In this document: positions 1 through 16,111 of the stretch, in pieces
Numbering within the stretch: position 1 is the first letter of the stretch
Layout of the letters: every line of letters begins with the position of its first letter
Source of the DNA: a virus
Taxonomy: Duplodnaviria; Caudoviricetes
Virus record (IMG/VR): IMGVR_UViG_3300037249_000541
Coordinates: 1 to 64,000 of that record
Reading direction: 5' to 3' (one strand)
Length of the DNA: 64,000 nt
Translations under genes and position numbers: made by a program
The notes under the pieces: generated by a model
Database searches by the model: none
What the model was told of the DNA's origin: nothing
Seen by the model: only the letters and a program-made list of their open reading frames with translations

Positions 1-3000
1 TTGTAGTTGCGTTTGCATTTGATAAAAAGCTTTTGTTCTTTAAATTTGATATGAACTTATTTACACTATTTTCGGTAAGTCTATTATCTCTATTTCTTAA
101 TTTTGATATTAAATTATTTATCTCCTTCTTCTCGGAATCAGATAATTCATTGCTGAAATTAACGACATATGATTGAAGCCTATCTGCAATATCGTCGTGA
201 TTGCCACTTTTGTAAAACCAATCATACTGTCTAAACTCCTCTTCAATCCATTTGTTTCGTCTTTCAATATTGTCGTCAAGAATATGCTTTATAAGATTAG
301 ATAAATATGAAGGATTTTTATATAAAGCATAATCTTTATTGTCAGCTCTTGTTGTGGCAGTTCTATCCTCTTCTTGTGTCGAATTATGAACTATTTTACA
401 TATTCTTTGTAAAGTATTCTTTGTTTTTGATGAATTTATATTATTAAAGAAATCGTCAATACCACCTTTCTTCTGGAATAATTCATATAACTCATGCATT
501 AATGAATCAATAGGAAACGCAGACTCTACATTGAACGATATACAATCATCAAATTCTTTTCTTGATACATTTATACCAAGACCACACACAGCCTGATATA
601 TTGTTTCAATATTATCTTGATTATCACCAAGCCACTTGACATAATCCTTATTGGACATTGTGCCTTGTTGATTAAAAGAACTACGAAGAGAACGCAACGA
701 TTTTATGAGTTCATTAGATTTTGCTTTTCCGTGCGCATCTCTCCATTCGTTGTTGTTAAATGGAGTTAACGACAGCTTTACTTGATTAGATATATTCTTT
801 AATGCGTCAATATAAGTTGTCTGTTGATTTAAAGAACCATCAAGCTCATTTAAAAGCAATGAATGTGTAGCCTGCATTTCTTGTCTAACAACTTCATCGC
901 CTTGTTTATTTTTATACGTAATAGTTTTTATATCACCATTTTCATCTCTTTTTTTATCTTTCTTATCATCAGTATAAAGGACTTCAAAGTTATTCTTTTG
1001 TTTATTAAACAGTTGAAAGAACTTTTGTTGCATACCATTGTTCTTGTTTTCTTCTTTATCAAAGTATGTTACAACTTTTTTAAATTCAGGGTGTGTTTTT
1101 GAATATTCAGAAACAATATCCATCATCTCTTGAAATGAAAACGCCTTTGTAAGTATATATTGAAGCGCATTGTAAGCTTTGTTTGCACTTATAAATACTG
1201 GCATATACATTTCATCAAGAACAACATTTTTATCTGGTGTAAGCATAGGGAATTTCTCTAAGAACTCTTTTAGTTCTTGGGATATACTCTTAAATGCGTG
1301 AGCATTCGCTGCATCAAATTGCCAAGACTCTTTTTCTTCCATTTCCTTATCCCTTACACTATCTGCATCTTCTCTTTCTTTTGAAGACGTTTTAGTGTTT
1401 CCAGATTCATCAGTAACAAGAACAAGATTGTTGTCTTTTGCATATTTAGTTATAGCATCAAATCCGAATGTGTCTATATTGTCAAGTATAATCTTATGAC
1501 CTTCCATACGAATTTTTGCTATTTTCTCGGCTTCCTCCCTACCGTCTTCAATGTTTTCTTTCTTATATTTTTTGTACGCAACCAAGTCTTTCATCGCGGC
1601 TTCAACATACCTTGCATAAGCATTCTCTTGATTTAATTGAGCTTCAATTGACTTTTTAAGGATATTTAAAACACCATTAAAACCACCAAGTGTATTAAGA
1701 GCATCGTGAAGTTTTTCTTTCTTCATCTTGCCTTTAATATTCGCCTTAATTACCTTACCAAGCAAATTTGATGTTGTATTTACATACGTTTGATATTTAC
1801 TCGAACCAAGCCTTGTTTTTAAATCGACAGAAAAGTTTGATTTTGAAACATCACCAATAGACATTATAGGAGCCTCACTTTTGTCAGCAATTATGCTATA
1901 ATCAGCAGGCATTGTTATAGTCGTCTTTGGATAAAATGAAATTTTCATTCCTTTATCGGTTGTTTCTATCTCTTTTACATAAGCTGTTGTAACATTGCCA
2001 TTATATACCACACGAATTAGGTCATTTGCTTGCAAATCGCTTAATGCAGACTTCATGGAATCAGTAAAGACTTCAACTTCAGAATTTGTTGTGAAACTTT
2101 CAATAAAATTCTTGTCGCTTATGTTATATTCTGTATTGTCAAATCCTTTTATGGTTGATACACTTTCATTATCTCCAAACTTCTCTTCGTATTCTTTAAA
2201 CAAGTCATCTACGTGAGTTATAGTCCATTGGTTTGCTTTTAAGCTTCCATCTTCATTATAAAGTTCAAGTGCCGTATCTGATTGATGAGCAGCAAAACAA
2301 TATAGACAATGGGACATACAAATGTCATTCCTTCTTAAAGCAGCAACCTTGCCTTTAAAACATGAACAATATGTTCTTTGTCCAAGAACTCCTCTTGGAG
2401 CAGAATAATCTTCTTGTTTTTCTGTAACTTCCATTCCAAGCATTTGCTGAACAGCATTTACAGAAAGACATCCAGTTTTTTCTATTGCATCACCTAATGG
2501 TATTGTATTACCATCTACATCAGTAGTGGTTTTGCTAATTACTTCTGCACAAGTTATAAGCTTTGCGCAATAATCGTCAGTTGCATAATAATCACGTAAT
2601 TCTATCATTTTAGCGGCGATAGAATCCTTTATAAACTGGTTCGCATCTTTTTTAATGTTACCATTGTTATCTTTGCCGTATTTGGTTTCAAAATAATCAT
2701 TTGGATTTTGTCCAGCCTTAATTAGAACTTCTTTAAGTTCAGGTATTAATTCATTGCCATTCTTACCACCAACAGTCATACCCTCTGGATAGTAATCAAG
2801 AATGGAGAATTTAATTTGCTTTATACCTTTTTGCTGAGCAAACTTAAATATGTTATGAACAGTATTTTTCTCCCCTTCTGCACCAGTACCAAAGTTAGTT
2901 ACATCTGGGACTATAGGGTCTACTCTTAATGTAACATCATTTGGGTCAAGATAACCCATATCAATATAATCACCTATTCTTTTAAGAAGTTCATCTGATT

Positions 3001-6000
3001 CCATAACACCTTTCTCAAAATTAGTATGACCAAGGGTTGTTATAGAGAAATGAATCTTCAATGGAATACCTTTCTCTTTACACATTTTAAGGAGTTCAAG
3101 AGTTGGCAATCCATCGTGTTTTGTAATAAGATACAAGCCATCTATATCCTTGGAAGTTACTACAACTTTCTTCTTATAATCATTTGTAGTACCTTCTGAT
3201 ATCATTCTCTTATCATCTGGGAGTTTATCATACTCTTCTTTTGTAACTCGCTGCCAAGTAGTATGATTTATTTTTCCTTCAAAGAAATTTTTAATCCATT
3301 CTACATGAAAAGCTGGGTCTGTTTGTTCGCTTGCAGCTAATATACGAGGGTATCTGAACCCTTCTTTAATATTGGGGTCAGAAGGATTTTGTAATTTCTT
3401 TCCTTTATTCCAATCGTTAACTTCAGATTGTGTGAGAATAGTTTTTTCACTATTAAGCACTCTTTCTGATTCTGCCGCATTACTATCAGTGAATGGATTG
3501 TCATTTGCATATCCATTTATACCGCTCTTGCCATAATTGTAACTTACAGTATCTGCTATAATGCGTTTTAAATCTTCGCTTTCAGTAGTTGTTCCAACTA
3601 ATGCAGTTCTTGGTTTAAATACTGGTTTTTCAACACCAGAGAAATTCCAGTTACCATCAATATTACTAACCCATATCTTTTTCTTTAAGTCATATACATA
3701 TACGGGCTTCCCTTCGTCTATTGCCATCTGCACAGCCCAAGGAGTACCTTTTGCTTCTATATGAGATTCACCTTGATGAGAACTTGATTTTTCAACTGCA
3801 TCAGCAATAGCTACAACCATATCACTTCTTCTTACCTGTTCATAATCACGAGCAAGAAACATATTGATATGCTCATCAGAAATATTGTGTTGCAATGTTT
3901 CATTAGCTTTATTGACAGCTTTTACAGCTTTATTATATTGCTCTTTTGAATAAAAAGCTTGCGTCAAGCCATATCTTTCCCTCTTCTCTTCATCTTTTTC
4001 AGAAGACAAATGAACTGTCTTGAAGCCATATTTCTTCATAGCTTCACCCCAAGTAACATCGGCTCCTCTTGCACCGCCAGAGAAAAATAGTGGTGATGGA
4101 GAATAGTTCTCAATCTTATCTTTATTCCTAAGTAAATAGCCAATCACTTGCGCGTGTGATTTAGTCTTTAAAACCTTGTCGTATAATATAGGAACATCTT
4201 CATTAGAATCATATATAACATCAAGCATAGCCATTCTAATTTCAGAAGCATTTTTAACTCCCATAATCTTGTTGGCTTCATCCATATACTCACCATTAAT
4301 AAGCCATTTGTAGAACTGCTCGGCAGATTTACCATCTTGTTCTTCTTTCCTTTGACCATAACTAAATGGATTACCTATTATATGCTTTTCCCTTATTGCT
4401 TGTGGATTCTTCCATAATGAACCATCTGCTTGATTAGCTATTCTATATGCAACTATACCATTAGTCTTTTTAACAAAGTCATTAAAGTTCCTTATTATCG
4501 CATTATAGCTATCAATGATTATATTGAATTTCTCATTCAACTTCTTTATTTCTTCTATTTGCTCTTCATCTGACTTTGGAGCACTTTTTGATTCATTCCA
4601 ATTGTCTGTCCAATTTTTACTGAATATTACATTAGAAGGAATGGGTCCAGCATCTTTGAACATCTTAATCATCTCAGCACCAGTGTAACCATTAAGTGTG
4701 GCTTCATTTAATCCATTAGTGTAGGCAACTTTAAATTGTTTATTAGGATTTTGCCTTGCTACTTCATACATTTTACGAATGTTTTTGGTAATCTGTGCTG
4801 GAGAAATGCTTTTATAGGATTTGGTATCTTTAATTATATCTGATAATGCTCTTGCCTGGGAAACTCTTGTACTTGCAAATTGGTCAGTTAAAGTTTTACC
4901 ATGAGATTTTTGGCTAAGTTCCTCTATTAATTTTGGATTTTGTTTAGCCCATTCTCTCCATAACGGTAAATATCCTTGTTCATAGGAAGCATCTTCGTTA
5001 TTTCCTGTGATAATGGTTTTATCTTTTGGAACACCAGTTTTTGAATTGTTGTCTGTAATCCAATCCCCTTGCTTTACACCATGCTGATATACAGACTCAA
5101 TAGTTCTACCACTCACATCATGTCCAAATAGCACCGTTCCTTGTTTAAATTTGGCATTTAATGCAGAGAATCTATTATCTCCTCTTGAAGATACTTCATA
5201 ACCATTGTCAGATGTTCTTGCCCAATCTGGAGTTCTAAGGTCTTTTGTAGGTAAAGCATACGAATTACCTTGCAATCCTTCTCCTTGCCTTAATTTAGCT
5301 CCAAATTGGTCTACTGCCACTTTTGCAGCACCAGCACCATGTCTACCTTCAGGATTAGAGCCAAATACAAAAATCGTATTATCATCTGGAGTTATCTTAC
5401 TTTCATAATATGTAGGAACTTGCTGACCATTTTGCTTTTCTGATAAGAACAATGGGAGTTCAACATCTTGTGAAGATATTACTTGATAATATGGTTTTAT
5501 ATTATAAGCCTTTGTTATATCTTCAATCATATTATCGAAATAAGGATATAACTCATTATCTTCGTCAAAATCTATTAAATCCTCATATCCGTCTATATTC
5601 TTAACAAAATCATAGAAACCGCCAATATTTTCAAGTGCAAATAGATATTCCTTAAAACAATTCATAATATCATTTGATAAATGTAATCCATTTGCATCAT
5701 TATCAATCAATCCGAACAAAGATGATACATCTATTCCAAATTTTTCAAATCTGTCAACAAGTTTTTCAAGTCCTTTATTTGATAAATGAAATGAATTGTC
5801 TCCACTTTTTGAAGTTATGCCTTTATCGTATACTGTGTTAAACATCCTACCAATCCTACTTAATATTGTAAGATAAATAGCAGCTGACTCATCTGTATCT
5901 GAATGGAATCTTGTTATTACTTGACTATTTTTTTTCTGTGATTCAGATAAGGTAGGCTTTTCTTCAAGATATTTGTTTGCATAATCATTTCTTATACTCT

Positions 6001-6373
6001 CTGGAAAAGCACGCTCAAAAAATCCATAGAAATCGCTATTTGTCAAGCATATTTGCTTTACAGAGTGTAAAAATGCATCAAATGCACCATATCCAAATCT
6101 TTTGTACGCAAGATAGTAGTTGTTTAACACAGACTTATATGTATCATTTCCAATAATCTTTTCAACTATTGGATTTAATTTTGCGTAATTATCACTACTT
6201 GCCCAAAATAACAATTTATTATTTGGCTCAGAAGGTATAGCGTATCCAAGGTTATAATCATCTCCTGTTATGTTCTTAACCTGAGCTGCTATTGCATCTG
6301 CATTAAGCTTGGTTGTCTTGTCATTGACACCAATAGATGCAGTAAGATTTATTTCACAAGATTTATTTTCCAT
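1..6373 (-). CDS. Giant cargo / virion RNA polymerase-type protein, N-terminal part (more than 2,100 aa, truncated by window edge), with polyvalent accessory domains
   Basis: Not in the ORF track because it has no stop in the window. ATG at 6373 (MENKSCEINLTASIG...). Same frame confirmed by hand at 6373-5881, about 5340, 4800, 4320, 4020, 3300, 2880, 2280 and 1-60. Its position after two other giant cargo genes matches crAss-like RNAP loci. No DxDxD catalytic motif seen in this part. Confidence 0.85.
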   Translation of the reverse strand, partial: MENKSCEINLTASIGVNDKTTKLNADAIAAQVKNITGDDYNLGYAIPSEPNNKLLFWASSDNYAKLNPIVEKIIGNDTYKSVLNNYYLAYKRFGYGAFDAFLHSVKQICLTNSDFYGFFERAFPESIRNDYANKYLEEKPTLSESQKKNSQVITRFHSDTDESAAIYLTILSRIGRMFNTVYDKGITSKSGDNSFHLSNKGLEKLVDRFEKFGIDVSSLFGLIDNDANGLHLSNDIMNCFKEYLFALENIGGFYDFVKNIDGYEDLIDFDEDNELYPYFDNMIEDITKAYNIKPYYQVISSQDVELPLFLSEKQNGQQVPTYYESKITPDDNTIFVFGSNPEGRHGAGAAKVAVDQFGAKLRQGEGLQGNSYALPTKDLRTPDWARTSDNGYEVSSRGDNRFSALNAKFKQGTVLFGHDVSGRTIESVYQHGVKQGDWITDNNSKTGVPKDKTIITGNNEDASYEQGYLPLWREWAKQNPKLIEELSQKSHGKTLTDQFASTRVSQARALSDIIKDTKSYKSISPAQITKNIRKMYEVARQNPNKQFKVAYTNGLNEATLNGYTGAEMIKMFKDAGPIPSNVIFSKNWTDNWNESKSAPKSDEEQIEEIKKLNEKFNIIIDSYNAIIRNFNDFVKKTNGIVAYRIANQADGSLWKNPQAIREKHIIGNPFSYGQRKEEQDGKSAEQFYKWLINGEYMDEANKIMGVKNASEIRMAMLDVIYDSNEDVPILYDKVLKTKSHAQVIGYLLRNKDKIENYSPSPLFFSGGARGADVTWGEAMKKYGFKTVHLSSEKDEEKRERYGLTQAFYSKEQYNKAVKAVNKANETLQHNISDEHINMFLARDYEQVRRSDMVVAIADAVEKSSSHQGESHIEAKGTPWAVQMAIDEGKPVYVYDLKKKIWVSNIDGNWNFSGVEKPVFKPRTALVGTTTESEDLKRIIADTVSYNYGKSGINGYANDNPFTDSNAAESERVLNSEKTILTQSEVNDWNKGKKLQNPSDPNIKEGFRYPRILAASEQTDPAFHVEWIKNFFEGKINHTTWQRVTKEEYDKLPDDKRMISEGTTNDYKKKVVVTSKDIDGLYLITKHDGLPTLELLKMCKEKGIPLKIHFSITTLGHTNFEKGVMESDELLKRIGDYIDMGYLDPNDVTLRVDPIVPDVTNFGTGAEGEKNTVHNIFKFAQQKGIKQIKFSILDYYPEGMTVGGKNGNELIPELKEVLIKAGQNPNDYFETKYGKDNNGNIKKDANQFIKDSIAAKMIELRDYYATDDYCAKLITCAEVISKTTTDVDGNTIPLGDAIEKTGCLSVNAVQQMLGMEVTEKQEDYSAPRGVLGQRTYCSCFKGKVAALRRNDICMSHCLYCFAAHQSDTALELYNEDGSLKANQWTITHVDDLFKEYEEKFGDNESVSTIKGFDNTEYNISDKNFIESFTTNSEVEVFTDSMKSALSDLQANDLIRVVYNGNVTTAYVKEIETTDKGMKISFYPKTTITMPADYSIIADKSEAPIMSIGDVSKSNFSVDLKTRLGSSKYQTYVNTTSNLLGKVIKANIKGKMKKEKLHDALNTLGGFNGVLNILKKSIEAQLNQENAYARYVEAAMKDLVAYKKYKKENIEDGREEAEKIAKIRMEGHKIILDNIDTFGFDAITKYAKDNNLVLVTDESGNTKTSSKEREDADSVRDKEMEEKESWQFDAANAHAFKSISQELKEFLEKFPMLTPDKNVVLDEMYMPVFISANKAYNALQYILTKAFSFQEMMDIVSEYSKTHPEFKKVVTYFDKEENKNNGMQQKFFQLFNKQKNNFEVLYTDDKKDKKRDENGDIKTITYKNKQGDEVVRQEMQATHSLLLNELDGSLNQQTTYIDALKNISNQVKLSLTPFNNNEWRDAHGKAKSNELIKSLRSLRSSFNQQGTMSNKDYVKWLGDNQDNIETIYQAVCGLGINVSRKEFDDCISFNVESAFPIDSLMHELYELFQKKGGIDDFFNNINSSKTKNTLQRICKIVHNSTQEEDRTATTRADNKDYALYKNPSYLSNLIKHILDDNIERRNKWIEEEFRQYDWFYKSGNHDDIADRLQSYVVNFSNELSDSEKKEINNLISKLRNRDNRLTENSVNKFISNLKNKSFLSNANATT

Positions 6374-6385
6374 ATTATTACAATA

Positions 6386-9300
6386 TTAACATTTCTTAAT
6401 TTCTGATTGCAAAGGTACTAATATTTTTTTGAACTCATCAACATCATACCCATTTTTTTGACAAAAATCATTTAGTTCCTCATCAGATTGCTTCTCTATC
6501 TCGGCAATATCATATTTCTTGAAATTTATTATATCCCTTATATCCTTTTCTCTGCCCATTACAAGCTTTGCACCTATTGCACTTGTAAAATCAGCCAACA
6601 CAAATCCATTTATAACCTTTTTCTTTACTTCCTTTGTGTAAAATATATCAACTGGATAACCATCAAATTCAAGAGTAACCATAAGACCTAAATCTGATTT
6701 ACCAAAATTCTTGACTCTTATATTGGCATATTCGCTTGAAAGCATTTTATATATTGGAGTCTTCTTCAACTCTTCCGTTAATGAAGCGAGATGCCCTTCT
6801 TTAAGACTTTTGTATACTCCCTTGTCTTTATATAAGTAATTTTTAGTTAATGTTTCATATGTTTTAACAAGGTCATCAACAGCATTTTTAACTTGCCAAG
6901 AGAAGTTGTTAAACTTCATAGTAAAGTCCAAATCATGGAAATCTTCTTCCCCAGACCTATATAAAGTACCTTGCATCCTTAACGCAGCACTTCCATCAAG
7001 AGCTGCACCAAGATTTACAAGAGTTCTATATATATTGTAATGCTCATTTGAATAAAGCTTGTCCATATCAAGAGTTTTTAATTCAAAACCTTCTTTGACG
7101 ACAGTATTATAATATTTTGAATTTTTGTCAATTATTTCATTTACAGCCTTATTTATTAATGACATATAATAATTGTCATTCTTAAATATTTTATCAAATA
7201 TATTTGATATATGATTGCTTAGTTTACCTTTTAAATCACCAAGCAAGTTTGATTGCTTTCCTTCTATCACTTTTAATATATCCCTCGAAAGGACGGCTGG
7301 ACTTGCGTCAAGACCATTCAATTCTGCCACTTTTCTAATTTCTTGTAATAAATCATCTGGCATAAGCACAGCACATACTTTTGAAAGAGCAACATTGAAT
7401 GACCTGTCACTTAAATCTGGAAATGTCATAACTTTGTTTACAAAGTCAACTACAACTTCTGCATTTTCAGTATTAAACACAGTTGAGAAACCAAGTCTTT
7501 TACAGAAATCTATCGCATCATCGCCAACTTCCTTAACAATTCTTGATGCAGTATCACCTTTTGTTGGATTGGCGAGTTCGTAATTAATTTCTGTATTTCT
7601 TACAATCTTCTTAAACCTATCAAACAATGAGGTAAAGTCTCTTACATTACCCTTATATCCAAATATTTTTAATATATCATTTATAATCTCTCTTATTCTA
7701 TCAAACAATGTGTAAGATGATTTGGATTTTGTTCTCGCAAGAGCATTCTGCAAAATTTCGTCAGACATAACTTCAGAAAATAATTCTTTTGCAGCAGATG
7801 CTCCTCTTTTGCTAAAAACATATTCTATATTTGTACCAGCAAATACAGATGGGTCTTCATTATAGGCGTCTGATATTTCATTTATAAGTTCGTTTATTGC
7901 AGATAATATCTCACGATTACCAATAATTTCCTGATGTTTGAATACATAATCAAGCATATGCATAGTCATAGGATGCACAAGCTCGTGAATAAGTGTTTTT
8001 GCAGATGCAGATTTTGGTATAATAACGACATCATCTGTTTTGTTGTAAAAACCAGTCGCATTTGGCTTTTTGCGCTTTGCTTTTAGTAATTCAAATTCCT
8101 CATCTGAAACAACTTTTACCTTTGTATTTAACCCTATATGCCTACGAATAAAGTTTACAATATCAGAGTCGATACCTTTTATACTTTCGACTATGCCAAT
8201 AAAATCATTTATTGTGTAATTGCCAATAGATAACGATAATGATTCTTCATCAGTACCAGTTACTTCTCTAAATAGCTCTTCACCAAATCCTCCATCACCT
8301 AAATCGACAATAGTTGCATCTTCTACAACTGGAGGCTTTTCAGTATACTTATTTAGCACTTGCTCAAAATGCTCAGATTCATCATCACTCATATCGTAAA
8401 CCTTACCAAATATATTTCTATATTCTGCTACATTTGAATCTATGCTATCTTTCCAACTATCATTACGTTTTTCACCACGTGCAGCCATACCGCTTGCAAA
8501 TTTATCAGCACTCATCGTGACAACAATATCAATATCGTTTTTACGATTGCGAATGAAGCGCATATCAGAAACAAGAAGTTTTTTACCTTCCTTTTTTGCT
8601 TTTTTAGTATATTCGTCAAGTTTTTCATCAAGAAGCCTATAGTATTTATCCTTGGTTTCTTTTGGCGCATTAAGTCCAGTACAATATATTGAAAGGTCTT
8701 TTGCGCTTGTACTTTTAGGTAGTCCAAAAGCTTCTGCGATTTCAGGTTTTGCAACAGAATCAAAATCTATTACCCTACTATCACCTTTTTCGTACAATGT
8801 AGTTTTGCCAGCAGTAGGGTGCGCCCATATAACAGTAGCTTCCTTAAATTCTTTGCTCCAATCTATTTGGTTCTTATTTATTCTTTTTTGTATTGTAAAT
8901 GTATTTGTATCAAAATAGTAATCGTCATTAATATCTATTGTAATCTTTGTTGACTTATCAAGTATATGTCCAATGAGCTTATTACGTAGTGCAGATGCTA
9001 TTGATTTGTTATCAACGATATTATTCGGGTCTGCAATAGACAATAATTCATCATTAGATATACTTTCTCCGTCTTTATTTACAATATCATTATTAGCATT
9101 ATCATTTTCATCAATTTGAACAAACACATAATTATTTGCTGTACCTATTGAAACTTTTGATGAATTTTTTTGTTCACCAGTGGTTTTCTTGTATGAGTCA
9201 AAAGGATTGACACTATGATATTCCTCAGTTCCACTGAAGCCTACATAAAAGTTACCATTTTCTCTACCAATATTATTGTTGCCATCGTTTGGATTTACAG

Positions 9301-12300
9301 AAAAGTATTTTGAATATGTATCAAAATTTCTATTACCTCTATTTGAAAGATTTATGTTTGGTTTAACATAAATTACAGTTCCTTCATTGAAACAACTTAT
9401 TGTTTCGATTACAGTTTCTCCGTTAGGCGATTTCGTAACAACATTTCTAAATCCACCTTGTTTTATTTGATTGAATATTGTTTCAACTATATAATCAACC
9501 AATTCACCTTGGCCTTTGCCACTAAGTGGTATACTAAGTGTTAACAGAGTTTTATTGTCAGTTGTAACAGCATTTGCATAACATCCAAATATTGCACCAG
9601 TTTTCTTGTTTACCTTGAATTTAGGGAACCACCCAGCACATTTTGGTATAAACAAGTTTTGCATACGTTTATAAAATAGTTCACCAAATTCCTTTTCATC
9701 ACTTGCTGATATTTGATTACCAGCACCTCTTCTGCTATTTACAAAATCAACAAGATTCTTAGCTATTACTGTTATGTTTTCAATCAAGTCCTTTAAAACC
9801 TCATCATCTCCATTTATTATATCAGAAACAGACATACCATTCATATTTATTGCACTATAATTGTATGATATTCTTCTAAACAATATATGGTCTGTATTTG
9901 GATATACACAAACAAAATTTTGAACAGAAGAACCATCAATAGTGGGGTATGCTGATTCTGGTATACTTATTTTGTTGTCATTAAATATATCAATAGCTTC
10001 TGTTGAACCATTTTTCACAAACACGATTGTAATATCGCCATTTTCAAATGCCTCTTTTATAGAAACATTTCCAACTCTTGCGTCTGTTAATGGGATAAAA
10101 GAAGTTGAATTGGTTTCAGAGCCTTTAAGAGTACCTAATATCCTAAAAGGTTCACCATTTTGATTTTCAATAGATGTAATTTTATTTCCAATTTGTCGCT
10201 CACCATTTTTCTTTCTTGGCAAAGCTATGCTTGGGTAATGATTCTTACCTTCTTCGTCAATCCAATAACCAAATTGATATTGATTTTCCTCTGTTACAAT
10301 ATTATTGGATATATAGGACTTGCCTCTTGCTAAAAAGCCTATACACCTATATTCGCCTTCATTGTCTTTTACATACAGAAATGCTACATCGTCATATTCA
10401 TCTTTCTTTTGAACATAAACCTCAGTATATTCATTATGTTCTGCATTTCCTTTTACAAGTTTATCAAGCCTACCTGAGTTTACAAAGTCAAAGGCATCTT
10501 TTATTTCTTGAAGTTCAAATATATTATCAAATCCTTCAGTTTTATGCATTTGACCATCAGAGCCAAATCTCATTGGTGTCATAGACCTCGTAAAAGCAAG
10601 CATTGGCATATGATTTTCTTCGTCAAATACTTGCTTTCCAGATACAGTATTATATATATCATCATTAGTGTTACCGTCAATCTTATTCTTATTACGTTCT
10701 TTCCACTGCCTAAACTGTTCAATATCAGACTTAGTACCTAACCAATGTACATTCTTGTCATTAGCATTTATTACAACAGCCACATCAGAACCAAATTCAT
10801 TGTCAGCTCTTCTACTTAGAATGGCATCATTACCATTTCTATCAGCTTGGCTAAACAAACCTCTTTGCTCTTCATAGTAAGTATTCTGTCCTTCTTCAAC
10901 AATAGGATTAGTTACATTGATAACTACAGGGTAAATACCTTTTGCAGTAGTTTCCATAGCCTTGAATACTTCTGCATTTCTTGCAGTCCAAGTGTTGAAT
11001 GTGTCTTTACCTAACTGCAAACCAAATACTTCCTCAAAGAACTCTTTGTCAGACTTGTTCTCATAACCATAGTCTGCTTTACGTTCTTTAAGCCATTTAC
11101 CATGTGTACCACCTTTATCTCTGTCAAACTTACCTCTCTTATTAGGAATAGCCTGTCTAATGCTGTTAACATCCTTATCAGTTATAACAATGTCTTTCCA
11201 ATCATTATTCTCCCTACGACCATTAGACATAATCTCTTTAAGTTCCCACCAGAGTTTATTCCAATGAGCAAAGCCATTCTTATCAGAACCTTGTCTATTT
11301 ACACCATTAACATACTGCAATGAAGCCCATCCCTGTCTATTCAAGTATAGGTCATTTCTCTTCTTAGTTTCTAATGCACCAGAGCCTTCACCTCTCTTAG
11401 CTGAATTAAAGCCATCCGAGAAATCTTCATTGCTACCGTGCCAATAAATGCTTCTATCTACACTGTTAGGAAATTTGTCTGCCAAATAAGCTGCGTATTC
11501 TTTTATAGAACCTATTTTACTTAACTCAGGATTTCTTTCAAACACTAAAGCTAATTGATTTTCTATCTCAGGATTAATTCTTGCAAAATCCTGCTCACTA
11601 TTTGCAAGAGCTTCTTCAAGTTTTTTATCAAGTTCTTCCTTTTGAGTACGTAACTTTTCTACAACAGATTTCATAGAGCCTTTTAACGATTCTTTTAAAT
11701 CGTCAGATTCATTAGTTATTGCTGTTATAGCAGTATCAATAGCACCTTTTAAGCTTTCTGCTGTCGTATTTTTCTCATCTCTTATTTCATCTATTGCAGA
11801 AGATATTGCATCGGCTTGTTGCTTTAAGTTATCGCTTTGAGTTTCAAGCTCGCTTATAGATTGTGCAACAGACTCTTTTGCTGAATCTTTTGTAGACTCA
11901 GCCATAGATTCAATCTCTTGTATCTTTTCTTTAAGTTTTGCCTTTGTTTCTTCCTCAAATCTTTGCTTCTCGGCTCTTATTTCTTCTATCTCAGCAAGTA
12001 TTTTTGCTCTAAGTTGTTGCTTTTGTTGTTCTACAATTTCGGATTCCTTTTGGCGTCTTAATTCCTCTCGTTTCTCCCTTGCTTTTTCTCTTTTAATTTC
12101 GTTTCTTGCTTGTTTGATAAGTTCTTCAACAGCCATATCTTCTTCTTCGGCAATAACTTGAAGCATCCTATCAATTAAGCCTTCTTTATTGGCTTTTCTT
12201 CTTCTCATCGCAGCAAGTTCTGCAACATATTTTTTCTTGTCTTCCAAAAGTACATTATCTACAATAGCTCTTGCAAAATCAAGTTTCTCTTGTTCAAGAG

Positions 12301-15300
12301 ACCTTTGCATTTCCTCTTCTGTAATGTCTTGCATTGGGTCTAATTCTGGAATCTTGACTGAACCATCGCCATTATATTCAGTATACTCAACATCTTGGAT
12401 ATCAGATACATTTAATGGAATACCAGTGGTTGATGATGTTCCTGATATACTTAAGCTTTCGTCAGGTTTTTGCCTTTCTATTGCAATTAATTTTGGACTA
12501 TAATGAGGATTTAGTTTTTTTCTGTCATTTCTATCAAAATCTAATATCTTTTTCGCTATGACAAAAGCAACTCTATCTCTTAATGGTTTTGTGTCTGTGA
12601 CATCAGAGATATTCATTCCTATTTCATGAGCAATTTTATAATATTCCATTTCATTCAATAGTAATGGAGTAAAATGATTCTTATATGCCCAAAATACAAG
12701 GTTAAACAAGAATTGCTTCGTTTTATTAAACACTTCATTCTGCTCATCCCTTTGCCATCTATCAAGTAGTTTCGCTATATATTCTTCTTTTGAAACAGAA
12801 TCATCACTTTCGTTTTGAAATTGAATTTCTTCTCTTCTTATTATTGCTGACAATGTATTCATCTCTCTAAAAGAAGCATCATTACTATTAATGGCATCTA
12901 TTGCTTCTGGAAGAAATTCTGCGATAAGCCTATTGGTTTCATCAATAGCATCAAGAAGTTCTTTGGACTCTGGATTTAAATCCTTCATTGCATTTTCAGC
13001 AGCCTTCTTAATCTTCTTTATTCTTGCAGCAAATTTGCTTCTGAAACTACGAAGAACTTTTAATCTTCTTTCATAATTAACTTTCTCCTTTTGAAGTTTA
13101 TTTAATTCAGCATAATCTTTTATTATTGCTTTTGTCTCATCAATTCTTTGCTGAATTTCGTTAAGTTTTTCTTCTACTGGTCTTATATACTTATCATATT
13201 GTTGTTTGTAATAATCCATAATTTTATCAAAATTATCTCTTATTTCACCAACAATATCTCTTTCTACTTTTGCTGGAAGATTCTTTAAGCTTTCTGCATA
13301 CGCTTTTCCATAGGCATCTATTCTTTCATTCAAAAACTCATCATTAAACGCATCAAATGTATGCTGCAATTCATCTTTATTATCCATAAGTTTGTTCATA
13401 TGGTTTGATACGTGATGAATTGCATTTGCACACTTATTCATATCCTTTAACATATTAAGAAAATCCTTCTTGTCGTTATAGGATACCTCTGATTCAGAAA
13501 TATCATCAAGTGTTTTCGCAAGCTCTTGATATACATTATGTGTCTTTGATGTATTATTTAATACGGTAGCACTTAATACAGACAACCCGTCAAGTTTGTT
13601 TCCATTCTTATCTTCTGCTTCACCATTTAAAAAGGATACAAGATTAGAGTATGCTTCTACAAATTTTTGTTGATTTTCCAATTCTTCTGTTAATTTAGAA
13701 AAATCATTTAATGCAGAAACAATTTCTTTCCTTTTTGCTTTCAATTCAGCATTATCTGGGTCCTTCCTAATTTCATCGTCTATACTCAGTATTTCTTTTT
13801 TAAGCTCGTTTTTGCCTTCTTCAAAATTATTGAGATTTACCTTATAGCTATCTAACTTACCTTTTATTGCAGTTAAAATCGTATTGTATTTATCTCCAAT
13901 TTTATCACGCATAGAATTTATTCTCTCTTCCCAATTTTTTGCTTGTGTAAGTCCCCAAGCTATTAAATTTAATTCTTTTTGTTCAAGAGAATAGCCTGTT
14001 CGAGCGTCGGCTTCATTAACAGCCTTTTGATATTCTTTTATTATATTTTTAATTCTATTGGACTCCTTCTTAATTTTTTCCTTAGCTTCTGCTCTTCTTG
14101 GGTCGTTTGAATCTGTTATATCAGATATTCTTTCTCCATTATCTGTTAATAGGAAAGAATAATCCGAGTGGTATTTGTTATCTCCATACTTCTTTTCATT
14201 CTTTTCAGTCAAACCTTCTGAAAGGGCATTAAGTTCTTCATCTGATATATTATCATTATCGCCTATAAGGTTGTTTAGTGCTGTTAATTCTCCTGCATTT
14301 GCGAAAGTTTGAACCATTCTTATAGTTTGCGCATCATTTTCATTCTCATAAGCAAACTTATCACCTCTTGCAGCAGCTTGCATTTGACGTTCTTTTGATG
14401 CAAGATTAAATACACCAAGTCTAAAATTATCTTGCAATTTCTTATTTGTCATCAGCTTGTTCATTTCATCATAAGCTTTTTGACTTCGTTCTGCAAGTTT
14501 ACCACCTTCACGCCAAGCTTCAATAATACCACCTTGCCAAAAATCAGAAGCAGTCGCTCCTCCTCTTGCAAGTTTAGATAATCCAGCAGGATTAAAAGTT
14601 CCAAATGCACCAGTCACAGCACCAGCAAGGAACTCTTTCCAAGTTTCAGCATTTGTATATGTATCACTAAAAGATTCACCAGCCTTTTCCAAAAACCTTG
14701 AAAAAGATTCTGCCGAATTAGGGTCATAATCACTCCCATAATATTGTTTGGCAAGTTCTGACGCCCATTTTTGGTTTGATTCCTCAAAGCCTTCAGATAA
14801 TGTCTCTCTTAAAGCTACTGCTCTTGCTTCAAGTTTAGAGATACCTTCGCCTAATGGTTTTTCTGGATTAGGCATAATCAATTCTTTGGCTCTTTGTACA
14901 AGACCTTTTTTAATTTGCCTTTCTGCATTGACCGATGGGGCTTTCAAATAAGATAGTGTTCCCATAGTATTTGAAAGCCCTAAGATTGCCATATTTAATC
15001 CGAATGTCATAGAACCACCAGACAAGGCTCTTTGTTCAACACCATCAAGTTCAGCAGCCCTATTTGCCTCTATTTCTGATATTATATCTAAATGATTATT
15101 TCTTGCCTGTCTTACAGCGGTAGCCATATCTATGGGAGTGCCACTATTTAAGGCTTCATTATAAATATCAATAGCTTCAAGTTCAATATCCTTATTTACG
15201 TTTATTACTTGCTCTTTATATTTGTTGTTTATATCATTTGTGTAAGCATCTTTCAAATCGTTATAATTATTTAATGCTTCCATGCTTGCTTCAGATGCGG

Positions 15301-16111
15301 AACCTACTATACCAGCCATTAATCTGTAAAACATATTTACAGTATTTGGACTTGCACCAGCTTTTCTGACAAGTGATGCTGTTAAACTTGACAATCCCAT
15401 TCCACCAGTAAGAGCAGTTGATAACAACATGCCAGCAGTAAATCCAGCAGATGCTATATTTTCCATCCAAAAATTCCAAGTCCCCATATATCTCAATGGG
15501 CTCATTTCAGCCTCTTTTTTACTCTTGTATAATGGTAACGCTTCATCAACAGTTTTCCTTAATGCATCCTGCATTTGGGTTGCACTATTATTCCACGTAC
15601 CAGAAAAGAATGTCGTATTTGGGTCATCGTCATACTCGTTAACAATTCCTTGATACACACCAACGGCTAACCCTACTATATTGCCAACAGCTGTATTAAC
15701 TGTTTCAACTCCAAATCTACCAAGCGCACTACCGAATTTTGACCAAAAACCTTGCTCTCTTGCTCTTACTTCATTTAAATCTTGATAATCTTCATATGTA
15801 TTTGCATATTTATCATAATAACTTTCATTTAAGGATGGGTCTGCATCCTGACCCATAGTAAACCTGTTTCCGCCATAATCCTCATATGCGTTTTCTTGCG
15901 CTTCTATAAGATTACTTAAACTGCCTAATGTGTTATGTCTTGGAGCAGGCATAGGATTTCCATTAGAATCAGTAACAACTGTTTCTACTGGTTTATCATC
16001 AAGTATTATTTCATCGTTATTATACAAGTATCTCGGGTCTTTCTTTTCTTCCTCTGTCGAATTAGAAAGATTTTTACTTGGACGTTGCCCTTTTGTTATA
16101 TCAAATCCCAT
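6386..16111 (-). CDS. Giant ejected cargo protein (3241 aa): N-terminal hydrophobic helices and coiled coil; C-terminal half with ART-like, P-loop, HExxH and nucleotidyltransferase-like motifs
   Basis: ORF track. Motifs IYWHGS, AHPTAGKTT, IHELVH, GSAALRMQG..HDLDF..REKDIRDI. Synteny with crAss-like cargo block. Confidence 0.85.
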   Translation of the reverse strand: MGFDITKGQRPSKNLSNSTEEEKKDPRYLYNNDEIILDDKPVETVVTDSNGNPMPAPRHNTLGSLSNLIEAQENAYEDYGGNRFTMGQDADPSLNESYYDKYANTYEDYQDLNEVRAREQGFWSKFGSALGRFGVETVNTAVGNIVGLAVGVYQGIVNEYDDDPNTTFFSGTWNNSATQMQDALRKTVDEALPLYKSKKEAEMSPLRYMGTWNFWMENIASAGFTAGMLLSTALTGGMGLSSLTASLVRKAGASPNTVNMFYRLMAGIVGSASEASMEALNNYNDLKDAYTNDINNKYKEQVINVNKDIELEAIDIYNEALNSGTPIDMATAVRQARNNHLDIISEIEANRAAELDGVEQRALSGGSMTFGLNMAILGLSNTMGTLSYLKAPSVNAERQIKKGLVQRAKELIMPNPEKPLGEGISKLEARAVALRETLSEGFEESNQKWASELAKQYYGSDYDPNSAESFSRFLEKAGESFSDTYTNAETWKEFLAGAVTGAFGTFNPAGLSKLARGGATASDFWQGGIIEAWREGGKLAERSQKAYDEMNKLMTNKKLQDNFRLGVFNLASKERQMQAAARGDKFAYENENDAQTIRMVQTFANAGELTALNNLIGDNDNISDEELNALSEGLTEKNEKKYGDNKYHSDYSFLLTDNGERISDITDSNDPRRAEAKEKIKKESNRIKNIIKEYQKAVNEADARTGYSLEQKELNLIAWGLTQAKNWEERINSMRDKIGDKYNTILTAIKGKLDSYKVNLNNFEEGKNELKKEILSIDDEIRKDPDNAELKAKRKEIVSALNDFSKLTEELENQQKFVEAYSNLVSFLNGEAEDKNGNKLDGLSVLSATVLNNTSKTHNVYQELAKTLDDISESEVSYNDKKDFLNMLKDMNKCANAIHHVSNHMNKLMDNKDELQHTFDAFNDEFLNERIDAYGKAYAESLKNLPAKVERDIVGEIRDNFDKIMDYYKQQYDKYIRPVEEKLNEIQQRIDETKAIIKDYAELNKLQKEKVNYERRLKVLRSFRSKFAARIKKIKKAAENAMKDLNPESKELLDAIDETNRLIAEFLPEAIDAINSNDASFREMNTLSAIIRREEIQFQNESDDSVSKEEYIAKLLDRWQRDEQNEVFNKTKQFLFNLVFWAYKNHFTPLLLNEMEYYKIAHEIGMNISDVTDTKPLRDRVAFVIAKKILDFDRNDRKKLNPHYSPKLIAIERQKPDESLSISGTSSTTGIPLNVSDIQDVEYTEYNGDGSVKIPELDPMQDITEEEMQRSLEQEKLDFARAIVDNVLLEDKKKYVAELAAMRRRKANKEGLIDRMLQVIAEEEDMAVEELIKQARNEIKREKAREKREELRRQKESEIVEQQKQQLRAKILAEIEEIRAEKQRFEEETKAKLKEKIQEIESMAESTKDSAKESVAQSISELETQSDNLKQQADAISSAIDEIRDEKNTTAESLKGAIDTAITAITNESDDLKESLKGSMKSVVEKLRTQKEELDKKLEEALANSEQDFARINPEIENQLALVFERNPELSKIGSIKEYAAYLADKFPNSVDRSIYWHGSNEDFSDGFNSAKRGEGSGALETKKRNDLYLNRQGWASLQYVNGVNRQGSDKNGFAHWNKLWWELKEIMSNGRRENNDWKDIVITDKDVNSIRQAIPNKRGKFDRDKGGTHGKWLKERKADYGYENKSDKEFFEEVFGLQLGKDTFNTWTARNAEVFKAMETTAKGIYPVVINVTNPIVEEGQNTYYEEQRGLFSQADRNGNDAILSRRADNEFGSDVAVVINANDKNVHWLGTKSDIEQFRQWKERNKNKIDGNTNDDIYNTVSGKQVFDEENHMPMLAFTRSMTPMRFGSDGQMHKTEGFDNIFELQEIKDAFDFVNSGRLDKLVKGNAEHNEYTEVYVQKKDEYDDVAFLYVKDNEGEYRCIGFLARGKSYISNNIVTEENQYQFGYWIDEEGKNHYPSIALPRKKNGERQIGNKITSIENQNGEPFRILGTLKGSETNSTSFIPLTDARVGNVSIKEAFENGDITIVFVKNGSTEAIDIFNDNKISIPESAYPTIDGSSVQNFVCVYPNTDHILFRRISYNYSAINMNGMSVSDIINGDDEVLKDLIENITVIAKNLVDFVNSRRGAGNQISASDEKEFGELFYKRMQNLFIPKCAGWFPKFKVNKKTGAIFGCYANAVTTDNKTLLTLSIPLSGKGQGELVDYIVETIFNQIKQGGFRNVVTKSPNGETVIETISCFNEGTVIYVKPNINLSNRGNRNFDTYSKYFSVNPNDGNNNIGRENGNFYVGFSGTEEYHSVNPFDSYKKTTGEQKNSSKVSIGTANNYVFVQIDENDNANNDIVNKDGESISNDELLSIADPNNIVDNKSIASALRNKLIGHILDKSTKITIDINDDYYFDTNTFTIQKRINKNQIDWSKEFKEATVIWAHPTAGKTTLYEKGDSRVIDFDSVAKPEIAEAFGLPKSTSAKDLSIYCTGLNAPKETKDKYYRLLDEKLDEYTKKAKKEGKKLLVSDMRFIRNRKNDIDIVVTMSADKFASGMAARGEKRNDSWKDSIDSNVAEYRNIFGKVYDMSDDESEHFEQVLNKYTEKPPVVEDATIVDLGDGGFGEELFREVTGTDEESLSLSIGNYTINDFIGIVESIKGIDSDIVNFIRRHIGLNTKVKVVSDEEFELLKAKRKKPNATGFYNKTDDVVIIPKSASAKTLIHELVHPMTMHMLDYVFKHQEIIGNREILSAINELINEISDAYNEDPSVFAGTNIEYVFSKRGASAAKELFSEVMSDEILQNALARTKSKSSYTLFDRIREIINDILKIFGYKGNVRDFTSLFDRFKKIVRNTEINYELANPTKGDTASRIVKEVGDDAIDFCKRLGFSTVFNTENAEVVVDFVNKVMTFPDLSDRSFNVALSKVCAVLMPDDLLQEIRKVAELNGLDASPAVLSRDILKVIEGKQSNLLGDLKGKLSNHISNIFDKIFKNDNYYMSLINKAVNEIIDKNSKYYNTVVKEGFELKTLDMDKLYSNEHYNIYRTLVNLGAALDGSAALRMQGTLYRSGEEDFHDLDFTMKFNNFSWQVKNAVDDLVKTYETLTKNYLYKDKGVYKSLKEGHLASLTEELKKTPIYKMLSSEYANIRVKNFGKSDLGLMVTLEFDGYPVDIFYTKEVKKKVINGFVLADFTSAIGAKLVMGREKDIRDIINFKKYDIAEIEKQSDEELNDFCQKNGYDVDEFKKILVPLQSEIKKC

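Follow-up and report, generated by a model that had tools for sequence, protein, structure and literature searches.

Polyvalent proteins, as their survey sets out (PMC5512222), are very large proteins, encoded by phages and conjugative elements, which reach the new cell together with the DNA and bring enzymes for the first minutes there; among them the survey counts N4-type virion RNA polymerases (RNAPs) to which ART, lysozyme or RNase domains are fused. The Macro, NADAR, SLOG and DUF4326 domains are in turn often fused to one another, and have been proposed to neutralise host signals, toxins and adducts derived from nicotinamide adenine dinucleotide (NAD) (PMC9503650). AdfN, a free NADAR protein of T4-like phages, removes ADP-ribose from phage DNA and defeats DarTG1 (PMC11825919). 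Concerning the crAss-like phages, the protein of phi14:2 that bears the DFDxD motif is an RNAP packaged in the virion, which goes into the cell along with the DNA and there transcribes the early genes (bioRxiv 10.1101/2020.03.07.982082), and gp47, gp49 and gp50 were detected by mass spectrometry in the virions of crAss001 (PMC10172136). In the crAss literature consulted, all that is said of this transcription block is that its proteins are large and multidomain, and have a zincin protease and an RNAP motif. Here we analyse a giant gene at the left edge of a 64,000-nucleotide stretch of viral DNA (positions 1 to 64,000 of IMG/VR record IMGVR_UViG_3300037249_000541, hereafter the window), in which a crAss-type polymerase is preceded by five conserved modules, and whose product is, in our opinion, probably a polyvalent injected cargo protein.

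The open reading frame (ORF) lies on the minus strand (window 2..6373), as do all the features of this gene given below. Its left end is open at the window edge, where it crosses the origin of the record. The record is a 106,381-bp viral genome and, when it is read as a circle, the product has 3,791 residues, the first 2,124 codons being inside the window and the rest at record 101252..106254. With tblastn, the C-terminal 1,709 residues find the "putative RNA polymerase" in crAss001 and in about 80 other crassviruses (E 1e-73), with ~28% identity across ~1,600 residues. With blastp, residues 1590-3674 align on residues 186-2205 of crAss001 gp50 (3e-78 and 5e-42), so that the gp50-homologous region, from residue 1590 onward, occupies 2..1606 in the window. 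The GSDYDVDKLY sequence of the giant (residues 3027-3036, with DYDVD at residue 3029, beyond the window) is aligned with GSDFDVDKLY of gp50, and the DFDxD catalytic motif is kept. Pfam and PHROGs returned nothing for the polymerase part, and neither did phmmer searches of the PDB with both halves of the giant and with the gp49-like ORF. Judged by its homology, the giant gene is the virion RNAP gene, orthologue of crAss001 gp50 and phi14:2 gp66, which agrees with the RNAP-type cargo gene proposed by an earlier note made from the letters of this DNA alone.

What distinguishes the giant is its N-terminal part. The region shared with gp50 is preceded by ~185 residues in crAss001 and by ~1,590 in the giant, and residues ~310-1375 of the latter consist of five conserved modules, ~1,050 extra residues, none of which is found in crAss001 gp50. 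The earlier note had seen here a tandem train of five nucleotide-processing-like domains at the N-terminus. Its quoted motifs are all found in the giant ORF, in the order that it gave, at slightly different positions: IFVFGSNPEG starts at 5374 and not at ~5410, YEVSSRGDN at 5200, IGNPF at 4378, FSGGARGAD at ~4087 and ASEQTDPAF at 3334, and CMSHCLYCFA occupies 2320-2291. The five domains stand, but not the simple tandem train, as the second domain interrupts the first; nor is the array at the extreme N-terminus, since ~310 residues without a family come first. Profile or structure matches were obtained for four of the segments; the fifth, of 125 residues, matches no named family, yet it is a real domain.

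The first module is an A1S_2505 domain (residues ~321-383 and 518-600), which matches NCBIfam NF049995 with 93.5 bits for a curated cut-off of 45 (E 9e-27) and phrog_2072 at 7e-27. The match falls in two stretches owing to the insert, the N-terminal half (FGSNPEGRHGAGAA ... YALPTKDL) being encoded at 5225..5413 and the C-terminal half at 4574..4822. Compared with a 44-sequence alignment, the invariants of the family (FGSNP.G.HG..A..A...FGA ... NGY ... F ... N) are all kept. The family name given to this segment beforehand is thus secured by a hidden Markov model (HMM) match above the curated cut-off; its description as macro-like, on the other hand, was not confirmed. A comparison by hhalign with one phage macro protein aligned the glycine-rich N..G....G.A motif with a probability of only 0.7%, the family profile found no credible match in the PDB, and a Pfam scan of the 44 relatives gave no significant Macro match.

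The domain inserted in the A1S_2505 loop (residues 384-517, 4823..5224, phrog_9995 1e-25) has the fold of a NADAR protein. Its AlphaFold (AF2) model, built with 54 relatives, reached a predicted local distance difference test score (pLDDT) of 88.4, and when it was compared with 48,161 PDB representatives the top three chains were all NADARs: 8bat (Z 8.3), 8bau, a NADAR with ADP-ribose (Z 7.3), and 2b3w, which is YbiA (Z 6.5). These matches span 110-112 aligned residues, and the next chain is at Z 3.8. The best Foldseek match is again 8bat (probability 0.84), and in BFVD the viral NADAR models rank just after the family's own members, with template-modelling (TM) scores of 0.46-0.59. Within the domain, E43, K51 and D114 are invariant in the 54 relatives. 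The catalytic Glu, Lys and Asp of NADARs have been described, with E88 and K95 located on the core helix in E. coli C7 NADAR (PMC11543638), and E43, K51 and D114 are plausibly their counterparts. The segment itself does not match the Pfam NADAR families PF08719 and PF22397, and one of the 54 relatives matches NADAR-DarT1 at E 0.038; profile searches of the PDB with the NADAR-like alignments found no credible match, and a feature search of the ESM Atlas with this segment and the following one gave no usable match. The NADAR-like character put forward for this segment is therefore borne out by the fold and not by the sequence.

The third module is a conserved domain of 125 residues (residues 636-760, 4094..4468), marked by GIVAYR, IGNPF, F..WL and SHA.VIGYL, which we call here the GNPF domain. 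An exhaustive phmmer search of 1.84 billion representatives found 44 relatives at E<1e-3, mostly within proteins of 1,500-5,800 residues, some of them adjoining Kinase-PolyVal or DUF1848. Its proposed membership of DUF4326 was not confirmed. The comparison of the two families with hhalign aligned only 12 columns around GNPF, with a probability of 1.8%, and the C-x-C and CHG of DUF4326 are replaced in the GNPF family by YY/YD and SHA. The model of the domain (pLDDT 83) has its best PDB neighbour at Z 3.4, a profile search of the PDB with the alignment gave no credible match, and three DUF4326 models rank near the top by TM-score in BFVD (0.36-0.43), with E values (1.9-3.9) that are not significant. 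The order of the motifs and of the secondary-structure elements is nevertheless compatible with a relative of DUF4326 devoid of the cysteines, a possibility for and against which we see about equal chances.

It is followed by a SLOG-type Rossmannoid domain (residues 761-945, 3539..4093; SGGARGAD ... GTPWAVQMAIDEGKPV), which matches the "DprA-like" phrog_768 at 3.6e-6 and Pfam Nuc_deoxyrib_tr at 9.6e-4 (19.7 bits, below the cut-off of 28.8). Among its 43 relatives, weak Pfam matches were seen to Nuc_deoxyrib_tr (six, best 3.6e-5), cpYpsA (three) and DprA (one). All these sub-threshold matches point to Rossmannoid families of the SLOG/TIR clade, and tblastn connects the segment with the 'DprA-like' genes of cr113_1 and cr109_1 (2e-14). 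A profile search of the PDB with the alignment found no credible match. The SLOG call holds, on evidence that is weak but consistent. Members of the family occur widely in viral contigs, at 74 loci. We also noticed, in the N4-like Klebsiella phage Pylas (MH899585.1 / NC_049444.1), a segment 34% identical to this domain (residues 763-939, E 1e-13), which sits under the gene annotated there as the virion RNAP; fusion of this module thus extends to a virion RNAP of an unrelated type.

The last module is a DUF1848 domain (residues 1011-1375, 2249..3343), with a Pfam PF08902 match (7.3e-9, 36.3 bits) above the gathering cut-off of 30.5. Its Cx3Cx2C cluster (residues 1352-1359, 2297..2320) is intact; this cluster and a CxC upstream of it are invariant among the relatives, and all 7 family-invariant cysteines are kept. 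Such a cysteine set is what an iron-sulfur, radical-SAM-like enzyme would be expected to have. A profile search of the PDB with the DUF1848 alignment found no credible match.

How stable is this array? A search with residues 318-1375 retrieved over 500 giant proteins, encoded on contigs of ~100 kb; the Pfam domains precomputed for these proteins include DUF1848, cpYpsA, ART-PolyVal, Kinase-PolyVal and helicases. The earlier note had suggested comparing orthologous genes for the presence or absence of the domains, and we mapped twelve segments of the window giant onto the best 120 of these relatives: both the sets of modules and their order vary. In 85 of the 120, A1S_2505, the NADAR-like domain and the polymerase are present with none of the other modules, the GNPF, SLOG and DUF1848 modules being sporadic and their order changeable. 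The A1S_2505/NADAR unit is missing from the nearest of the relatives (P0013, with 96% identity over 3,200 residues), and the next one (P0014, 68% identical) has A1S_2505 devoid of the NADAR insert. At the DNA level, an 877-nucleotide A1S_2505/NADAR cassette (4571..5447) is replaced by 43 nucleotides in the contig of P0013, with flanks 93% identical and no microhomology or repeat seen at the junctions. Two giants with polymerases just 26% identical to that of the window giant have an A1S_2505/NADAR unit that is 83-85% identical to the one described here, which indicates a recent transfer of the unit between distant crassviruses. The modules are gained, lost and transferred like cassettes among crassviruses.

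These comparisons bear on two other explanations of the array. The modules could be decaying passenger insertions devoid of function, as their patchy presence among the relatives might suggest, but the ORF runs uninterrupted through 3,791 codons, none of the family-invariant residues or of the seven cysteines has been lost, and the cassette is still 85% identical where the polymerases have diverged to 26%; we hold this to be highly improbable. The modules could also serve the products of the polymerase, by processing or repairing the RNA made by the virion RNAP, or the host tRNA or mRNA cut by defence RNases, for instance through the removal of NAD-type caps or of by-products of RNA repair of the ADP-ribose-1''-phosphate type, with no direct attack on the defences. 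Their physical fusion to an RNA polymerase is in line with such a role, and the NADAR, Macro and SLOG families have been tied to viral RNA-repair contexts (PMC9503650). However, crAss001 gp50 and most of the relatives transcribe without DUF1848, SLOG and GNPF, and the near-identical sister phage has no A1S/NADAR cassette; the modules are therefore accessory and not part of transcription, and we regard a service to RNA as improbable.

Several further observations concern the mobility and association of these domains. In 8 of 80 A1S_2505 loci the nesting is reversed: A1S_2505 sits within the NADAR-like domain, at a low-confidence loop of the latter, and in the crass-like contigs concerned (L005:3022-3846, L174 and seven further loci) the N-terminal half, A1S_2505 and the C-terminal half follow one another in one frame. 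At L009:3013-4014, a different insert of ~190 residues occupies the A1S_2505 loop that holds the NADAR domain in the window. Insertions seem to favour this loop. In two other contigs, A1S_2505 is found either between two polymerase-homologous segments or after the polymerase segment (L176 and L223, respectively), and the module is therefore not confined to the N-terminal side. Finally, the modules pair in unrelated viral contigs, jumbo phages included (A1S-SLOG, NADAR-SLOG, DUF1848-SLOG and GNPF-DUF1848), which argues for a functional theme that they would share.

We believe that these data are best explained if the giant is a polyvalent injected cargo protein carrying counter-defence enzymes of the NAD/ADP-ribose type, and we consider this fairly probable. 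The protein is very large, combines several unrelated enzyme domains and is encoded with virion genes. The family-invariant residues are all kept, among them the 7 cysteines of DUF1848 and E43, K51 and D114 of the NADAR-like domain, and the presence or absence of the cassette between 93%-identical phages, together with its 85% identity on 26%-identical polymerases and the variable sets and orders of the modules, is the signature of an arms race. The whole giant would be packaged and, by analogy with its orthologues, ejected ahead of or with the DNA; the modules would then refold in the cytoplasm next to the incoming genome, possibly after having been freed by the zincin-type protease motif (HExxH) of a neighbouring cargo protein. 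Once there, their task would be to undo attacks of the host based on NAD-derived chemistry. The NADAR module could strip ADP-ribose from nucleic-acid bases, in the way AdfN does against DarTG1, the SLOG, A1S_2505 and GNPF modules could bind or degrade nucleotides or signals of the ADP-ribose type, and DUF1848 might use radical chemistry to reverse a further kind of nucleic-acid lesion; all this would precede the expression of any phage gene. In this scheme, we infer the packaging of the N-terminal part and the enzyme activities of all the modules.

Several points weigh against this explanation. We know of no enzymatic activity for A1S_2505, DUF1848, the GNPF domain or the present SLOG clade. 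The spacing from Glu to Lys in the NADAR-fold domain is 8, compared to 7 in the canonical NADAR motif. The Pfam HMMs of Macro and of NADAR (PF08719) found nothing in the whole phage genome, and that of DUF4326 (PF14216) had no match in the giant, in ten short relatives or in the whole genome, while in a control the same HMM recovered genuine DUF4326 members in 5 of 5 jumbo-phage records. PADLOC gave no match either. Elsewhere, DUF1848 adjoins host defence-type genes (PMC9226505), so that it might act in either direction. Last, the virion evidence all comes from orthologues devoid of the N-terminal extension (residues 1-1590).

This last point is also what gives weight to another explanation, in which the N-terminal array is not delivered at all. 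It would be cleaved before packaging, or act late in the producing cell on the progeny DNA or the NAD pool, the fusion merely ensuring its co-expression with the late genes. A polyprotein cleavage has been proposed for the proteins of the crAss transcription block (bioRxiv 10.1101/2020.03.07.982082), and the HExxH of the neighbouring 3,241-residue ORF would be consistent with it. Nevertheless, a purely late action leaves the fusion to a cargo protein without a reason, and fusions of effectors to N4-type virion RNAPs recur independently (PMC5512222), the SLOG-like segment in the Pylas RNAP being one example; to a non-delivered array we grant a small probability.

Coming back to an injected protein, the array could be tethered to the polymerase to clean its template, the NADAR and DUF1848 modules stripping adducts in cis from the entering genome. 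Single-stranded DNA is believed to be a template that the crAss virion RNAP can accept, and DarT-type toxins ADP-ribosylate single-stranded DNA. Adducts would then be removed at the first exposure of the entering DNA, and the slot in the polymerase could be seen as a swappable 'adaptor bay' matched to the defences of the Bacteroidales hosts. We think this rather unlikely. Each of the rival explanations (passenger insertions, service to RNA, absence of delivery) is less likely than an injected counter-defence kit.

The genomic context of the giant gene is that of a crAss transcription block. On the same strand, upstream, are found the muzzle gene (Pfam crAss_MUZ, 1.6e-226), cargo protein 1 (crAss_CARG1, 8.9e-35), an ORF of 870 residues and the 3,241-residue ORF (6386-16111), which is the orthologue of crAss001 gp47; downstream lies an ORF of 1,406 residues, the orthologue of gp49. 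The gp47 orthologue contains the HExxH motif (LIHELVH) and a long coiled-coil-like stretch, and no enzyme or metallopeptidase profile of Pfam or PHROGs matches it. The major capsid protein is 60% identical to its counterpart in Kahnovirus oralis (Steigviridae), and the source phage is a Steigviridae-like crassvirus. The homologous giant genes of seven other loci (L013, L106, L247, L252, L253, L255 and L256) have in-frame TAG codons where their relatives have Gln, as would fit the recoding of TAG to Gln that some crAss-like phages have been reported to use (PMC7886860). The two ends of the record share a 127-bp direct repeat (window 1-127, identical to record 106255-106381) and, as it falls within the giant ORF, it is probably the overlap of a circular or permuted assembly rather than a physical genome end. 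Two parts of the N-terminal region have no family assigned: the first ~309 residues (5447..6373), conserved only in the closest relatives P0013-P0015, and residues 1376-1590 (1607-2248), for which no family was detectable. Both may be further effector segments, or segments involved in packaging or ejection. A megablast search with the region against 50,697 phage records matched nothing.

Among the phages of the human gut, crassviruses rank first in abundance, and to our knowledge almost nothing is known of their evasion of host immunity. If the modules are indeed ready-made anti-defence enzymes, this would partly explain the extreme size and variability of these polymerase genes, and it would provide a first functional context for A1S_2505, DUF1848 and the GNPF domain. 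The sister phages with and without the cassette offer a natural and direct experimental handle. The reciprocal nesting of the A1S_2505 and NADAR-like domains is, in addition, a neat case of evolution by domain insertion.

Compared with the polyvalent proteins described in 2017 (PMC5512222, as far as its available part goes), the window giant is similar in being a giant multidomain protein encoded among virion genes, in combining an injected RNAP with variable effectors, and in having relatives that carry the Pfam domains ART-PolyVal and Kinase-PolyVal. It differs from them by its carrier, a two-barrel crAss-type RNAP (DFDxD) unrelated to the T7-like enzyme of N4, and by its cargo, since A1S_2505, NADAR-fold, SLOG and DUF1848 domains are not in the list given there for the N4 type (ART, lysozyme, PBECR and metallopeptidase). 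The word 'crAss' does not occur in PMC5512222, and in the literature searched we did not find crassviruses described together with NADAR or polyvalent proteins, the few papers in which the terms met being reviews or matches to unrelated words such as Crassostrea. The fusions described in 2022 (PMC9503650) likewise bring together, by fusion or adjacency, NADAR-type and SLOG-type domains with further small ones, all with a predicted early deployment against host signals or adducts derived from NAD. Here, however, the modules are embedded in a 3,791-residue virion polymerase, DUF1848 is an added partner, the NADAR is divergent enough to be missed by the Pfam HMM, and membership of Macro and DUF4326 could not be confirmed. 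With AdfN and the DarT1-associated NADARs (PMC11825919, PMC11543638; 8bat, 8bau), the modelled window domain shares the same predicted fold (Z 8.3/7.3), and its invariant Glu and Lys, placed on the core helix, and its invariant Asp are plausible counterparts of their catalytic residues; unlike them, it has no sequence match and is nested in a cargo protein instead of being a free early protein. Finally, with crAss001 gp50 and phi14:2 gp66, the giant shares ~2,200 orthologous residues, the catalytic motif and the same neighbourhood (gp47-like and gp49-like ORFs, cargo protein 1 and muzzle), and it differs from both by ~1,400 extra N-terminal residues with the enzyme array. In conclusion, the kind of protein is already known, both as polyvalent virion proteins and as ADP-ribose-processing fusions, whereas the fusion of such modules to the two-barrel crAss polymerase, the polymorphism of the cassette between sister phages, its transfer across lineages and the reciprocal nesting of two of its domains appear to be undescribed.

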